Below, piece after piece: positions 189-42,073 of a stretch of 42,421 bases of DNA (within the stretch, counting starts at the first letter, position 1; each line of letters starts with the position of its first letter). The notes beneath the pieces are model-generated. The model was not told the DNA's origin. It did no database searches and was given only the letters and a program-made list of their open reading frames with translations. The DNA is from a virus (lineage: Duplodnaviria > Caudoviricetes). Location: positions 1 to 42,421 of IMG/VR virus record IMGVR_UViG_3300028599_000009. One strand, 5' to 3'. The translations under genes were made by a program, and so were the position numbers.

Positions 189-623
189 TCATGATTTACT
201 TAGCCTGTCATATAGAATTACATTGACGGATGCTGCTAGATTCATACAGCCATTAGTAGGGACATATATAATATCCCTGCAAAAATCAGTAATTTGTTTG
301 CCTAGTGCGCCATCTTCAGGGCCAAATATATAGAACGCTCGTACAGGGTGCGTATATTCTATTAAGTTTGTAGCTCCTTCAATTAGATCGACAGCAACCG
401 GAACACAATCGTTGGGGATCGCTTCACGCAAATCATCAAAATAGAGTAAAGGGATGCGGCGATGGTATTTTGCCGGGTCTGTAACAAATTGTTTTGATTT
501 TTTGTATCGATGCCCGGTATAAGCTAAAAATGCGGCATCATAATTACCGCATGCACGCATAGCACTGCCAACGTTTGCGGGTGTTTTTGGATTAAAGAGC
601 CCAACTGCACAGTATCCTCTCAT
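189..623 (-). CDS. SpoU/TrmH-family (SPOUT) RNA 2'-O-methyltransferase, minimal TrmL-sized domain
   Basis: SPOUT motifs: PKTPANVGSAMRAC (motif 1), YIFGPEDGAL (motif 2), IYVPTNGCMNLAASVNVILYD (motif 3). Confidence 0.9.
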   Translation of the reverse strand: MRGYCAVGLFNPKTPANVGSAMRACGNYDAAFLAYTGHRYKKSKQFVTDPAKYHRRIPLLYFDDLREAIPNDCVPVAVDLIEGATNLIEYTHPVRAFYIFGPEDGALGKQITDFCRDIIYVPTNGCMNLAASVNVILYDRLSKS

Positions 624-23989: not shown

Positions 23990-25009
23990 ATGCCGTTTAA
24001 CGGATCAGGTATATATAACCTACCAGTAACAACAGTAACCCCTGCTGTTGCTGGGACCACGATAGATGACTCAGAATTCAATACATTCACTGCTGACTTG
24101 AAATCTGCTTTGACTAATTGCATCGTTAAAGACGGGCAAACAGTCTCCCCCATCTTAATTAATCCAAAGATCCTTACAAAGGTTCTTGATACGAACGGCA
24201 ATGAAGTATTGGATTTAGCTGGCACTGCATCTGCTGTCAATAATATTCTAATTCAGAATCAGACAACAGGGGTTAAGCCGATTATAAGAACAATAGGTGA
24301 AGTGGATGTAGGGATATCGTTTCAGGACACTGAAAATGAGCAAATGCTTAATCTTGAATCTGTTGCAAACGCAGTTAATGAGGTTTCAATCACAAACGCG
24401 GCAACAGCCGGTGCGCCATCAATAGCGCCTACTGGCGGCGATGTTAATATCGATCTTGAATTATCAGGTAAAGGCACAGGCGATGTTGTTGTTACTAATT
24501 TAGCTGCAACAAGCGCGACATTAACAACTCCGACATTAACAACTCCGACATTAACAAGCCCTGTTATAAATACAGGCGTATCGGGTACTGCTGGTGTTAG
24601 GGGTATTTTTATTTTAGACAATCCTGAAACGTTGTATAGCAGCGCAACATATACATCAGGAGCATGGACATCTTCAAGCGGATTCGCGTCCACAACATTG
24701 CCGACAGCTGGCGCAACAGGGGCAATAGTCAGGTTATTTGTAAGAATGCATTGGCTAACTGATACAGATGTTCAGGGATTATGCGCGATACGTAAAGCAG
24801 GGGAGATTGATACAGGCATCCCAACCTATATTAATATGCAGCGGGCAAACCTCAATAGTAACGGGCTAAACCAAATATCTCCAAGCGGAGAAGGGACAGT
24901 TGCTCTTGATGCAAGCTCTGATTTTGAATTCAATTTTAGTTGGGACACGTTGGTTGCGCCAACAATCGACCAAAACTTCACTGTAACGCTTATCGGTTAT
25001 TATGTTTAA
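23990..25009 (+). CDS. Tail fibre/spike attachment protein
   Basis: MPFNGSGIYNLP...LTNCIVKDGQ N-terminal anchor; TLTTP repeats. Confidence 0.75.
   Translation: MPFNGSGIYNLPVTTVTPAVAGTTIDDSEFNTFTADLKSALTNCIVKDGQTVSPILINPKILTKVLDTNGNEVLDLAGTASAVNNILIQNQTTGVKPIIRTIGEVDVGISFQDTENEQMLNLESVANAVNEVSITNAATAGAPSIAPTGGDVNIDLELSGKGTGDVVVTNLAATSATLTTPTLTTPTLTSPVINTGVSGTAGVRGIFILDNPETLYSSATYTSGAWTSSSGFASTTLPTAGATGAIVRLFVRMHWLTDTDVQGLCAIRKAGEIDTGIPTYINMQRANLNSNGLNQISPSGEGTVALDASSDFEFNFSWDTLVAPTIDQNFTVTLIGYYV
24518..24558 (+). repeat. Intragenic 15-bp tandem repeat ACATTAACAACTCCG (about 2.7 copies; TLTTP)
   Basis: Seen directly. Confidence 0.8.
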
Positions 25010-25422
25010 TGGACTTTAACGACCCTACATATTTTCTGGATATAAACGGACTGTCAAAGCATATTGGCGGCCAGGATTACGACTATAACGAGACTAATCC
25101 AGGTATAGGAATAACCAGGGAAACAGTAAATGATAAGGTGGTAAAAGCTCTGATGGCTGGTGTTTACGAGAATAGCTTTGAAGATACATCGGCGTATGCT
25201 GGGGGCCATATAGCAAAAAGATTTGGTGATGATTATTATCTCGATCTTGGAGTATCAGGCGGCCTTATAACAGGATACGATGATAATGCATTAACTCCAA
25301 TGGCAGCATTAATGGCTCAGGTTGGTAAGAAAGGGTTAGGCAGATTAAAGTTTCAATATGTACCAAGTATTGAATCAAAGCAGCCTGCTCTTTTAATGAT
25401 GAATGCAGGATATGAATTTTAA
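25009..25422 (+). CDS. PagP-like outer-membrane beta-barrel protein
   Basis: SKH...YNETNPGIG...GVYENS pattern; alternating strands; C-terminal YEF; ATG overlaps the previous TAA. Confidence 0.6.
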   Translation: MDFNDPTYFLDINGLSKHIGGQDYDYNETNPGIGITRETVNDKVVKALMAGVYENSFEDTSAYAGGHIAKRFGDDYYLDLGVSGGLITGYDDNALTPMAALMAQVGKKGLGRLKFQYVPSIESKQPALLMMNAGYEF

Positions 25423-29166: not shown

Positions 29167-29295
29167 CTAACCTACACCTCTAAACGCAGTACTCATATCA
29201 GTTAAATACTCACCAATACGCTTGTCTGAATACTTAAATGCAATTATAGCGCCTATTATGGTGCCGAATATGAGCCCTATTAAAAAGAAAGTCAT
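29167..29295 (-). CDS. Small membrane protein (42 aa, MTFFLIGLIFGTIIG...)
   Basis: Read manually; coupled to the upstream ORF. Confidence 0.55.
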   Translation of the reverse strand: MTFFLIGLIFGTIIGAIIAFKYSDKRIGEYLTDMSTAFRGVG

Positions 29296-29579
29296 TTGAA
29301 TTTATCCCTGATTGCTCGTTTTATATCAAACCTATTTACACTCACATAATTACCATTATTGAAAACCTCATCAACAGCCTCACAAGCCTGCTCGACAAAT
29401 TGTTTAGTATTACGAGTATTCCACTTTAATCTCGCTTGAGCTGACGCGTCTGGTTGAAATGCGTGTACAGAGCCACCGCAAGATGTACATTTCACTTCCC
29501 TCCCATCTCTAATATATACATCAACAATTTTCTCGCCGCCGCAAAATGGACATGGTAAAAGATCAGTCTTATCTGTCAT
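29292..29579 (-). CDS. Lar-family (restriction alleviation-like) zinc-finger protein
   Basis: LLPCPFCGG...CTSC...WNTR. Confidence 0.75.
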   Translation of the reverse strand: MTDKTDLLPCPFCGGEKIVDVYIRDGREVKCTSCGGSVHAFQPDASAQARLKWNTRNTKQFVEQACEAVDEVFNNGNYVSVNRFDIKRAIRDKFK

Positions 29580-33848: not shown

Positions 33849-34078
33849 TACAGTAGTTCCATCAATGCTTCATGGGTAGCCTCATATGCCGGTTTCTGTC
33901 CATGTCCTGACCTTATCGCCTCTCTTATTTTATCGCTATCAATATTTCTGCATGTTTGAACAATCTGGGTGTGATTAAAAAGTGCATATAGGTCCGCAGC
34001 TTCGTCTGGCGATTCAATTGTTATAATTAAATTGAATGGCTCATAAGTTTTCGTCTCTTTGTGTGTCTTTACTTTCAT
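33848..34078 (-). CDS. Hypothetical protein (start MKVKTHKE)
   Basis: AGGGGA RBS before the ATG at 34078. Confidence 0.7.
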   Translation of the reverse strand: MKVKTHKETKTYEPFNLIITIESPDEAADLYALFNHTQIVQTCRNIDSDKIREAIRSGHGQKPAYEATHEALMELL

Positions 34079-34234
34079 ATCTATTCCCCTGTTAAGTTGG
34101 TGCCGGTTACGCTGTCCGGCGTCACGCTCTACCAAAGGTTCGAGTTGACTGATTTGTGGCGGCAGGCTTTGGGCGCGGCTTAATCTTAATGCGCGTTATG
34201 GCGTTAGCTCCGAATCCGCCTACTTGTCTGCCAT

Positions 34235-34394
34235 TATTTAGTGATATGGGCTGGTCATTACTCCAGCGACCCCACAAGCGATTATTTGATTCCGTGCCAG
34301 CTACAGCACCCGATGGGGCTACGGTGAGCCTTTTAAGTGCATCCTCATTCAACACTGCGTTTCTATGATTTCAACGCCGCCATATCAGTAAATA
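34235..34394 (-). ncRNA. tRNA-like unit A
   Basis: Closing stem 14/15 bp; CG linker; GCGTT-loop-AACGC arm; GCTGG-AGTAATGA-CCAGC arm abutting the 3' strand. Confidence 0.6.
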
Positions 34395-34403
34395 TTAAAG
34401 CTC

Positions 34404-34540
34404 TTATAAGAGAGGGCTGGTCGCTAGTCCAGCTGGCGTTTATCGTCGTCACCAAGACGTTACTGCTCCTACGTTTTTAAAGGCCGAGCCGTTCTGCCTA
34501 TATAGCGTGTCTCCGATTCTCCACGCCTCCTCTCATATAA
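34404..34540 (-). ncRNA. tRNA-like unit B
   Basis: Closing stem 11/12 bp; AG linker; GCGTG-loop-CACGC arm; GCTGG-ACTAGCGA-CCAGC arm. Confidence 0.6.
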
Positions 34541-34546
34541 AAACTC

Positions 34547-34660
34547 TTATAGGTGAGGGCTGATGAACCTTACAGCTCCTGTCGCAGACCCCATGCCTTG
34601 ATTACTTTCGGGTACCCTGCTCTTGACGTATAAGCGCATGTTATGCCACCTCACCTATAA
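34547..34660 (-). ncRNA. tRNA-like unit C
   Basis: Perfect 12-bp closing stem TTATAGGTGAGG/CCTCACCTATAA; TG linker; GCAT-AAC-ATGC arm; GCTG-TAAGGTTCAT-CAGC arm. Confidence 0.55.
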
Positions 34661-34664
34661 AAAC

Positions 34665-34747
34665 TTTATAGGGTGTGCTCTTCCTGCCTTGCTCTGCCTG
34701 GCCGCACTAGACACAGCAGACATGCGACGAAGAACACACCCTGTAAA
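34665..34747 (-). ncRNA. Long-stem unit D
   Basis: 17/19 bp inverted repeat enclosing a TCTGC...GCAGA hairpin. Confidence 0.55.
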
Positions 34748-34945
34748 ACTCTATGCACGTCCTTGTGCGATTGTCCTGTTTGGCCGTAGCCACGAATGCT
34801 GTCTATCCAAGCTGTCTTAAGCTTTCGCCATCCGAGTCGTATCGGAGTCCACCTTTAATCCAAGGTCGGTATTACTCAATTATCATAGTAATAATAATAA
34901 ACATCTAATCTCATAATCGGATTGACCGCTGCTAACGGCTAGTTA

Positions 34946-35464
34946 TCAGGAAGGTTTAGTCTCCTTTGTTGCTTGAATTGCCTCAATATTTTTTAGATAA
35001 TATATCGAAGCCTCGACTTCTTCATCAGTCAGATCTCTGTCTCTTACCAGCCTTGATATACTGAATACGATGCCTCCGTGGCGCGGACACATACCAATGG
35101 AATGGTCAGACCTTTGGTCGCCAAAACCATCGTAATTCTTCACGCCAATATAGCTGCTAGTTAATGCTGCAGGATTTTCCGCTAACTTTAGAATGGCGTC
35201 ATTGATTGCGTCTTTTCTACAGCTTTTGCCGTGTCCACGACTGCCTACAACGGGCCTTGATGCAGAGCCACTAATTTTAATGACTGATTCAGCAAGAGCT
35301 ATAGTATCTGTATTAAGCCCGATATTTTCTTGCTCAAGCATTGATTTTGTGGTGTGAATATTAATATCTAATGCTTTAAGTTCACGCTCATGGTTTGTAA
35401 TCAATATTTTGCGTTCTTTTTCTAGGCGATTAACCTGTTTGAATAAATTCGCCAGCTTGCCCAT
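34946..35464 (-). CDS. Conserved phage hypothetical protein, first gene of the left early operon
   Basis: 172 aa; N-terminal coiled coil; GVKNYDGFGDQRSD...GMCPRHGGIVFSI motif. Confidence 0.8.
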   Translation of the reverse strand: MGKLANLFKQVNRLEKERKILITNHERELKALDINIHTTKSMLEQENIGLNTDTIALAESVIKISGSASRPVVGSRGHGKSCRKDAINDAILKLAENPAALTSSYIGVKNYDGFGDQRSDHSIGMCPRHGGIVFSISRLVRDRDLTDEEVEASIYYLKNIEAIQATKETKPS

Positions 35465-35504: not shown

Positions 35505-35533
35505 AGTGTGGCACAATTGTATTACACGGTCAA
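35505..35533 (-). promoter_or_regulatory. Leftward early promoter in the divergent control region
   Basis: Minus strand TTGACC-17 nt-(TGc)CACACT; spacer contains GTGTAATACAA, a possible RHH operator. Confidence 0.55.
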
Positions 35534-37522: not shown

Positions 37523-38269
37523 GTGAATATAGTTAGTTATGGTGGTGGGATTAATTCAACAGCTATGTTAATTGAATGCGTGAAGCGTGAAATTCCAATT
37601 GATCTTATCTTGTTTGCGGATACAGGCGGGGAAAGGCCGGATATTTATAAATATATTCGTCATTTCAATAAATGGTTGATCAAAAATAAAATGCCAGAAA
37701 TCACAAGGGTGCAAAGAACCAATATAAATGGGACATATATCACGCTTGAGGGTTATTGTTTTGCAAAGAAGCAATTACCCAGCCTGGCTTATGGGTTCAA
37801 GAGCTGTAGCCAAAAACACAAAATACAGCCACAGGATAAGTTTCTAAATAACTATAAGCCAGCAAAAGAAGAATGGAAGGCAGGCAGAAAGATTACCAAA
37901 TTTGTAGGATATGACGCCGATGAGCCACAACGCGCAAAAGACTATACAGACAATAAATACATTGTTGAATACCCGCTGATCGAATGGGATATGGGGCGTG
38001 ATGAGTGTATTGATACGATCCGCGATTTCGGATTAGATATTCCAGGTAAAAGTGCCTGTTATTTTTGCCCGAGTAGTAAAAAACACGAAATCAAGAAACT
38101 TCAGCAGGATTATCCAGAGCTTGCAGCTAGGGCTATAGATATGGAGAAAAATGCGGATCTAACAAAAATCAAAGGGCTAGGCCGTAGTTTCTCATGGGGA
38201 GAGTTCCTTTCTGGTGAAGAGGTCCAAGAATGCAGTATTGAAATCGATTGTGGTTGTTATGACGGTTGA
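37523..38269 (+). CDS. PAPS-reductase-family (PP-loop, adenine nucleotide alpha-hydrolase) protein
   Basis: VSYGGGINSTAM PP-loop, FADTGGE, YPL, KSACYFCP. Confidence 0.85.
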   Translation: MNIVSYGGGINSTAMLIECVKREIPIDLILFADTGGERPDIYKYIRHFNKWLIKNKMPEITRVQRTNINGTYITLEGYCFAKKQLPSLAYGFKSCSQKHKIQPQDKFLNNYKPAKEEWKAGRKITKFVGYDADEPQRAKDYTDNKYIVEYPLIEWDMGRDECIDTIRDFGLDIPGKSACYFCPSSKKHEIKKLQQDYPELAARAIDMEKNADLTKIKGLGRSFSWGEFLSGEEVQECSIEIDCGCYDG

Positions 38270-41668: not shown

Positions 41669-42073
41669 TTGAATATAGATGAAGAGTTACATTTGACTAA
41701 AAAGGATTTCAGAATAGAGTGGTTTTCTGGTTCTGGAGCAGGCGGACAACACAGGAATAAGCACCAAAATTGCTGTAGAATCATACATATAGCAACAGGG
41801 TTAAGGGCGCAAGGTACGGAATCGCGTGAACGGGTATCTAATCAACGGACAGCATTTGAGAGATTAGCAAAGCTTGTAATTGCGCATTTCTATGCTGAAG
41901 ATCCAGAGATAAGATACAAAGCGAGGGAAACAATAAGAAATTATCATGGCGTTAGGAATGAGGTCCACGACAAAGCGAGTGGATTAAAATTACCTTATAA
42001 AACCATTGTTGATGATGGGGATATAGCTCCTATGGTTGACGCGCGAAGAAACTCAATAGTTGATATAGCTTAG
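41669..42073 (+). CDS. Class I peptide chain release factor-like protein (GGQ domain plus RF C-terminal region only)
   Basis: FSGSGAGGQHRNKHQNCCRIIHIATG...RERVSNQRTAF; ETIRNY...VHD and DGDIAPMVDA match the RF1/RF2 C-terminus; TTG start with GGGGGA RBS. Confidence 0.9.
   Translation: MNIDEELHLTKKDFRIEWFSGSGAGGQHRNKHQNCCRIIHIATGLRAQGTESRERVSNQRTAFERLAKLVIAHFYAEDPEIRYKARETIRNYHGVRNEVHDKASGLKLPYKTIVDDGDIAPMVDARRNSIVDIA

Follow-up and report, generated by a model that had tools for sequence, protein, structure and literature searches.

Tandem tRNA-shaped RNA units with exchanged inserts in the leftward operon of a 42-kb tailed phage

Some phages encode stable RNAs that look like tRNAs without being tRNAs. 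In the record of phage T5 (NC_005859.1), RNA1 and RNA2 are annotated as 'tRNA-like stable RNA with unknown functions', and passages of two papers describe the species 1 and species 2 RNAs of phage T4 as stable phage RNAs whose role is unknown (PMC3014915, PMC9697503), a Northern blot in the latter showing RNAC as a discrete RNA. The two T5 RNAs (125–144 nt) combine an acceptor-like stem, a 2-nt linker, a D arm, a long insert where the anticodon arm would be and a T arm stacked on the 3' strand, with no CCA at the stem end. T4 species 1 RNA (rnaC) is a looser fit: its 7-position acceptor-like stem has two mismatches, its middle is long and its T arm carries a canonical loop. Species 2 RNA (rnaD) did not fold to this plan. 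Also comparable are the C4 antisense RNA (RF01695), a multi-hairpin RNA of phage early regions that is cut from a precursor by RNase P according to the part of PMC5320573 that deals with it, and tmRNA and the YrlA Y RNAs, in which a tRNA top half is joined to a non-tRNA module.

The DNA analysed here, which we refer to as the window, is a complete virus record of 42.4 kb (42,421 nt, IMGVR_UViG_3300028599_000009, Caudoviricetes), whose best matches among metagenomes came from marine sediment; one of these metagenomes, X1, may be its source. Terminase, portal, major head and tail genes lie on the plus strand (PHROG and ORF annotation), and a leftward run of small genes without assigned function extends from 35464 to about 28900. 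Between the first of these, a 172-aa gene ending at 34946, and the next start at 34078 there are about 870 nt without a convincing gene, and this gap holds the array described below (Table 1). Four small ORFs overlapping the array region had no Pfam match, and rearrangements in relatives appear to cut through them. No terminator was called between the array and the downstream genes of the operon, and ARAGORN found neither a tRNA nor a tmRNA gene in the window. Two translation-related genes were seen in this 42-kb phage, coding for a SpoU-family RNA methylase (TrmL-like, under the curated cut-off; 189–623, minus strand) and a stand-alone RF-1-domain protein (41669–42073, plus strand). PHROG matches were also obtained for PagP-like, PAPS-reductase-like and Lar-like proteins (24940–25422, 37523–38269 and 29292–29579, respectively).

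Table 1. Features of the array and its surroundings, in the order of reading on the minus strand (positions in the window).
Feature	Position	Strand	Description
Promoter-like hexamers	35505..35533	-	17 nt spacing; by eye only, absent from the promoter-scan calls
172-aa first gene of the leftward operon	34946..35464	-	PHROG 13608, function unknown; upstream of the array; another gene instead in relative L086
CsrA/Rsm-type predicted site	34755..34768	-	hairpin with CANGGANG hexaloop; array head; pairing probability 0.98
Slot D	34655..34752	-	long simple hairpin framed by array linkers; folding z -6.18; fourth slot, upstream of C
Four AU-rich linkers between slots	34390..34752	-	near 34750, 34665, 34545, and 34401-34395; RNWUU matches
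Unit C	34540..34667	-	7-bp G1-C72 stem 34655-34649 with 34558-34552; linker TG
Unit C arms	short D-like 34646-34636; insert; T-like 34576-34559	-	insert 59 nt; one mismatch in T-like arm; weakest of the three units
Unit B	34397..34547	-	acceptor-like stem 34535-34529 with 34415-34409, first position U-U mismatch; linker AG
Unit B arms	D-like 34526-34505; insert; T-like 34433-34416	-	insert 71 nt
Unit A	34235..34394	-	7-bp G1-C72 acceptor-like stem 34386-34380 with 34249-34243; linker CG
Unit A arms	D-like 34377-34357; insert 34356-34268; T-like 34267-34250	-	insert 89 nt; discriminator A, no CCA
Element E	34098..34120	-	5-bp hairpin, 9-nt loop, then ACCA; immediately ahead of the following gene's ribosome-binding site

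Three tandem tRNA-shaped units, A, B and C, occupy this gap. They had been proposed in an earlier note made from the sequence alone, and the observation is confirmed: the six arm sequences and the linkers CG, AG and TG given there are all found in the minus strand as written. The top half of each unit has the 7+5 layout of a tRNA, after which the closing helices continue until they reach 14, 18 and 19 pairs in A, B and C, with one mismatch each; the pairing of these stems holds as proposed, while their length had been put a little too low, at 12–15 bp. Features of a tRNA gene that are present include the 7-bp acceptor (in A and C; the first pair is mismatched in B), the 2-nt linker, the D arm and the five-position T-like stem (one mismatch in C), which here carries an 8-nt non-canonical loop. 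The third acceptor pair is U-A or A-U. Absent are the 7-nt anticodon loop, the TTCRA T loop, a CCA after the discriminator and detection by tRNA models, and A and C also lack the D-loop GG. The anticodon arm is replaced by inserts of 59–89 nt, which agrees with the unit-specific 55–90 nt given in the earlier note, and neither ARAGORN nor Rfam called a tRNA, in line with the earlier view that these are not tRNA genes.

Such an arrangement is hard to obtain by chance. We used a strict descriptor consisting of six Watson-Crick inner pairs, a 2-nt linker, a 4-bp hairpin, an insert of 25–130 nt, a second 4-bp hairpin abutting the 3' strand and at least 12 closing pairs, and on both strands of the 42-kb window it matched A, B and C only. 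Among 1000 shuffles of the 870-nt region, one contained a single match and none contained two, and 15 shuffles of the whole window gave one match in total. A loose descriptor produced many chance matches. Rfam had nothing matching the window at E 1 or the array region at E 10.

The array is larger than first described. Its extent from A to C stands, but three neighbours had been missed, namely slot D, a Csr/Rsm-type hairpin upstream and the ACCA hairpin downstream that we call element E. Slot D is missing in both homologous loci found in metagenomes (L080 and L086, see below), and in a relative from metagenome run X7 a canonical T arm followed by CCA stands directly before the linker at this position (a loose end behind 34669). 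The slot D hairpin is a possible RNase III substrate, and no metagenome run in the comparison reached its middle. The linkers contain all eight matches to RNWUU in 34226–34775, none falling inside a unit (consensus as given in the portion of PMC5222698 that treats it).

Both L080 and L086 retain the CANGGANG hairpin at the array head (motif as set out in part of PMC4894983), differing at free positions only, and it is also present in run X7 (loose end); it is one of six full matches in the genome (p 0.055), so from the window alone it could be due to chance. A CsrB/RsmZ-type sponge was considered and rejected, since GGA is not enriched in the 867-nt region (20 against 16.1 in shuffles, p 0.12) and ANGGA occurs twice against 4.7 in shuffles, with a single full site that lies upstream of the array. 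Element E was found in 62 viral loci and is widespread in phage leaders. Its 9-nt loop is fixed, and ACC often comes after the hairpin; in early leaders it frequently stands after another hairpin, and it occurs in P2-like tail operons too. None of the 20 element E loci scanned belonged to an Rfam family, and element E was the only part of the array region to find cultured phages by BLAST (six records).

Thermodynamic folding alone supports the tRNA-like plan only in part, and the structural case is comparative. In the context of the array at 37 C, pairing probabilities were high for the acceptor and T-arm of B (1.0 each), the T-arm of A (0.88) and the acceptor of C (0.83), and low for the acceptor of A (0.23), the D-arm of C (0.20), the D-arm of B (0.09, a rival pairing of its D strand reaching 0.91) and the T-arm of C (0.01). 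Unit A folded alone adopts the full plan. Point variants give no support for structured inserts: seven of the nine that fall in predicted insert pairs break them, and none is compensatory. We also considered a kissing pair between the D and T loops, suggested by a 3-nt complementarity seen by eye in A, B and C, and rejected it, as L080 has the T-loop end of B without its partner.

The comparative evidence begins with close relatives. A metagenome scan gave 15 loci, of which one was the record of the window itself, two were homologues (L080 and L086) and 12 were unrelated. In L086 the inside of unit C (85/88 identical) is enclosed in the stem of unit B: the two strands of this stem are identical to B at 15/15 and 16/16 positions and to C's own at 13/15 and 13/16 (31/31 against 26/31). 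In L080 the stem of B surrounds an unrelated D-like arm and insert, with a T-like arm that has a longer loop. A chimeric assembly is an unlikely source of these combinations because the junctions share fewer letters than assembly words usually have. Contig joints from six metagenome runs, belonging to six studies, agree with exchange. Five joints retain both ends of B and omit the part between them (X5 has all five, and X3 shares one of these), another retains both ends of A and omits the middle (X5), and the others omit C and D, or A and E; the sides of these joints are 19–31 letters at 80% likeness, which makes them supportive and not proof. In run X7 unit C lies on a 53-kb contig, and the inserts of A and C reappear with hardly a change in other studies. 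The shell evolves separately from the insert, inserts are swapped between close relatives, and the proposal of interchangeable cargo on a shared scaffold is thus borne out by L086, by L080 and by the contigs of other studies.

The inserts themselves showed no significant similarity to one another (p 0.06–0.78). Their longest exact complementary matches to the phage's own genome were 10–11 nt, as in shuffles, loop targets of 7–9 nt lying beyond the reach of this test. At this level of complementarity we rejected a long-antisense reading of the inserts, and the antisense or guide role once suggested for them finds no backing in the phage's own genome.

Units of the same plan are not confined to this phage. 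Running the descriptor on both strands of 538 kb of retrieved loci revealed a unit with the same plan and junction letters in a provirus (L013), located in a leader beside a divergent gene; other descriptor matches in the retrieved loci were without the shared junction letters and were taken as chance. Of the matches from BLAST searches with L013 and its relatives, 14 were examined. Seven are complete units, found in Caulobacter phage DMCA, Pseudanabaena phage Pan3, Komagataeibacter phage phiKX1, Alcaligenes phage QDWS595, Acidovorax phage AP1, Iodobacter phage PhiPLPE and Roseomonas plasmid p1-AD2; two are tRNA-length genes, four are single arms (L194, L195, L196 and L199) and one lies inside a tape-measure gene (L190). 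These family units resemble those of the window in their junction letters, 8-nt T-like loop, extended closing stem and lack of CCA, and some have D and T stems identical to those of unit B. They differ in being single units with conserved D and T loops, the loops of the window having diverged: an ATCAAG signature in the T-like loop and a D-loop GG are invariant in 8/8 family units, while ATCAAG is absent in A, B and C. Family inserts range from 60 to 112 nt. Rfam had no family over any shell among the loci scanned.

Pairing is preserved through sequence change in both sets. Among the eight units from outside the window, the seven junction-side pairs are paired in 8/8 and each has changed on both sides, whereas the four pairs beyond these inner seven are looser; double-sided changes also affect four of the five pairs of the D stem and one of the five of the T stem. 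This covariation was matched by 0/500 shuffles, and slid controls were 28–43% paired, although the units had been chosen partly for having the structure and the counts are inflated to that extent. All three helices have a pairing probability of at least 0.9 in six of the eight. For five units of the window type, 5 of 12 closing pairs have changed on both sides, a figure reached by 4 of 500 shuffles. The suggestion that closing stems differ while selection maintains their pairing is therefore upheld, in units of the window type and in those of the wider family.

We built a covariance model, R1, from six of the eight family units, with no window or T5 sequence. The two units kept out of it scored 64.5 and 47.6 bits, and in the window A, B and C were the top three of 11 matches (20.1, 19.6 and 10.8 bits; rough E-values 0.013, 0.016 and 1.2). 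With a stem profile, B scored 37.4 bits against 33.2 for the best of 100 shuffled windows, and A, at 28.1, fell inside the shuffled range (mean 27.0, sd 2.0). On these results the window units are distant variants of the ATCAAG shell family, alike in their stems and diverged in their loops.

The two tRNA-length genes have a bearing on origin. In phages Rb1 (L197) and DSS3P8 (L198) the family T-like arm closes tRNA-like genes of normal length that score 42.5 and 39.5 bits against the Rfam tRNA model, which points to a tRNA ancestry of the shell. The surrounding DNA holds unannotated RNA clusters, consisting in DSS3P8 (L198 1005–2020) of GOLLD, a permuted tmRNA and a tRNA-like gene whose T loop has 8 nt, and in Rb1 (L197 1446–2402) of a tRNA-like gene, a permuted tmRNA and a tRNA-Phe. 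The insert of the Pan3 unit (L186 1493–1665) is itself a nested tRNA-like RNA with an odd anticodon arm (34.9 bits), followed by a terminator-like hairpin, and suggests that the shell tolerates any folded cargo. An early intergenic region of phage phiAH14a (L004 2216–2314) contains a further tRNA-like unit, not detected by ARAGORN or Rfam, in which the T loop is canonical and the closing stem is much extended.

Searches for more copies of the array itself gave little. Pattern scans of viral contigs with the letters of the window type found no homologue (0 loci, or 7, 5 and 1 unrelated loci), and the scan of genome contigs gave two loci, neither with an array. In L001, a relative through the 172-aa gene, no array lies behind that gene. 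BLAST of the array against capsid relatives (49 of 80) and L001 gave matches of 15–23 nt only, in 4 of 50 records. R1 applied to 44 records had three matches, which were L013 itself, L203 (without proper arms) and L202 (47 nt), and the T-arm pattern was found in one of 401 sampled genomes of one class, as a lone arm.

How, then, do the units relate to the described RNAs? R1 finds T5 RNA2 at 19.5 bits, level with A and B, while RNA1 was not among its matches at E 3; T4 rnaC and rnaD were matched neither by R1 nor by the descriptor. The T5 RNAs have a canonical 7-nt TTCRA T loop and belong to the tRNA cluster of a 122-kb phage, whereas the window units have 8-nt non-canonical loops and closing stems of 14–19 pairs and form a tandem array in a putative early operon of a 42-kb phage without a tRNA gene. 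By plan the window units appear to be of the T5 RNA1/RNA2 and T4 species 1 kind, as a variant and not as members of a sequence family. The earlier note could assign no named family: there is indeed no Rfam family, but there are named precedents, since T5 RNA1/RNA2 and, loosely, T4 species 1 share the plan. The kind itself is already known, and what is new is that the T-loop signature has been lost, that the units stand in tandem in a putative early operon with no tRNA cluster, and that exchange is documented.

The remaining systems are more distant. C4 RNAs (L181–L183, about 77–88 nt) have a mirrored geometry, their hairpins stacking on the 5' strand and their 3' linker being unpaired. Unlike tmRNA, the window units have no G3-U70 pair, CCA or called tag, and ARAGORN gave no hit. 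YrlA has its acceptor stem-loop placed between the T arm and the D arm and Ro60 encoded alongside (as described in part of PMC4201824), whereas the window has D and then T inside an open stem and no Ro60 name among its 72 ORFs with PHROGs or 22 with Pfam. Literature searches found no description of the window's shell family, with the motif letters occurring only in unrelated papers. For PMC10690425 the search covered six supplementary files, none with a motif match, and the family may already have been predicted computationally.

Beyond the observed plan, covariation, exchange of inserts and whole units, and kinship of plan with T5 RNA2, the function of the units can be approached through a model to which we give about an even chance: the units may be stable carriers, cut from an early transcript, that offer their insert to a host protein in trans. 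Transcription would run through the array together with the rest of the leftward early operon, host RNase E would cut in the U-rich linkers, and RNase P would mature the 5' end at the 7-bp stem (described as an RNase P determinant in a section of PMC4201824). The long closing stem would protect the ends of the RNA. With these ends paired and no CCA encoded, aminoacylation would not be expected. The insert would then be presented in trans to a host protein, for example a defence or translation factor, and inserts would be exchanged when the conserved stems and linkers recombine. The selected function would thus reside in the insert, and the array would be a variable accessory cassette made of RNA. 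The confinement of RNWUU matches to the linkers fits this model. The DMCA and Pan3 units, which lie before an opposite-strand gene and have no same-strand gene downstream, together with the terminator-like site of Pan3, fit action in trans. Several observations weigh against carriers: with neither an ATCAAG nor a TTCRA T loop, a tRNA elbow may fail to form and RNase P may fail to recognise the units; predicted rival folds exist in B and C, and the predicted acceptor of A is weak in the array; the R1 scores that suggest kinship are modest and the profile score of A is within the null; point variants within the inserts brought no compensatory pair; and the search of the phage's own genome yielded no target for any insert. 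The extended closing stems could also block RNase P and leave only 1–3 unpaired linker bases for RNase E. More tentatively, and with considerable doubt on our part, the array could be an exchangeable arsenal of RNA effectors, with a tRNA-derived shell as the cassette frame, release by host tRNA processing and swapped, aptamer-like inserts directed against different host defence proteins.

The active part could instead be the shell, which resembles a tRNA without an anticodon and would bind and sequester host proteins that recognise tRNA (anticodon nucleases, tRNA-cutting toxins or modification enzymes), the insert being a replaceable spacer. Only the shell is conserved across hosts, the similarity between inserts being non-significant, the wider family keeps both its D-loop GG and its T-loop signature, and the SpoU-family methylase and RF-1-domain genes would suit a phage that meddles with translation. 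We nevertheless regard such a decoy as unlikely, because the window units are without the T-loop signature, and A and C without the GG, and because several copies with different inserts would be redundant. The near-unchanged recurrence of the inserts of A and C elsewhere is unexpected for a spacer, though recent descent could explain it. Quite unlikely, in our estimate, is that the units serve in cis as processing or stability signals (sites for RNase P, E or III) in the early mRNA, adjusting the small genes downstream and having no role as free RNAs. A cleavage signal needs no large and distinct inserts, unit number and content vary between close relatives, and the DMCA and Pan3 units have no same-strand gene to tune; such a role would nonetheless suit an array inside an operon with no terminator called before the downstream genes, leader positions of the L013 and PhiPLPE units, an acceptor and T stem that would stack to 19–24 bp, and the CsrA-type site at the array head.

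It seems to us improbable that the units are functionless remains of tRNA genes, or of a cluster of them, that are decaying and have been shuffled by recombination. Their tRNA ancestry is evident, the window loops are degenerate, the folds are partly unstable and the capsid relatives searched have no array, but decay would hardly produce compensatory changes in the closing stems, stems extended beyond 7 bp or the same plan in phages of unrelated hosts. Least of all do we expect antisense immunity RNAs of the C4/CI type, with loops pairing to the phage's own early transcript, for which the chance seems very slight. The RF01695 covariance model has no match in the phage genome, genuine C4 copies have the mirror geometry just described, and no complementary site exceeds chance (for exact matches, loop targets of 7–9 nt being outside the test). 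What speaks for this reading is the early-operon position, the presence of 5-bp GC hairpins resembling element E and the G with which A and C start at the 7-bp stem, in C as the GGT start that is reported for C4 processing in a part of PMC5320573.

The carrier model and its alternatives concern more than one phage. The stable tRNA-like RNAs of T4 and T5 are still without a known role (T5 record; for T4, passages of PMC3014915 and PMC9697503), and single units of the same plan occur in cultured phages such as Caulobacter phage DMCA, Iodobacter phage PhiPLPE, Acidovorax phage AP1 and T5. The separate evolution of shell and insert turns the question into which of the two parts carries the function. 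Should the inserts be effectors, the shells would be natural versions of engineered tRNA scaffolds, and phage anti-defence would include a hidden and variable RNA layer. If an exchangeable arsenal of this kind is real, it would parallel, at the level of RNA, the hypervariable arrays of anti-defence genes, and it would account for T5 RNA1/RNA2 and T4 species 1.
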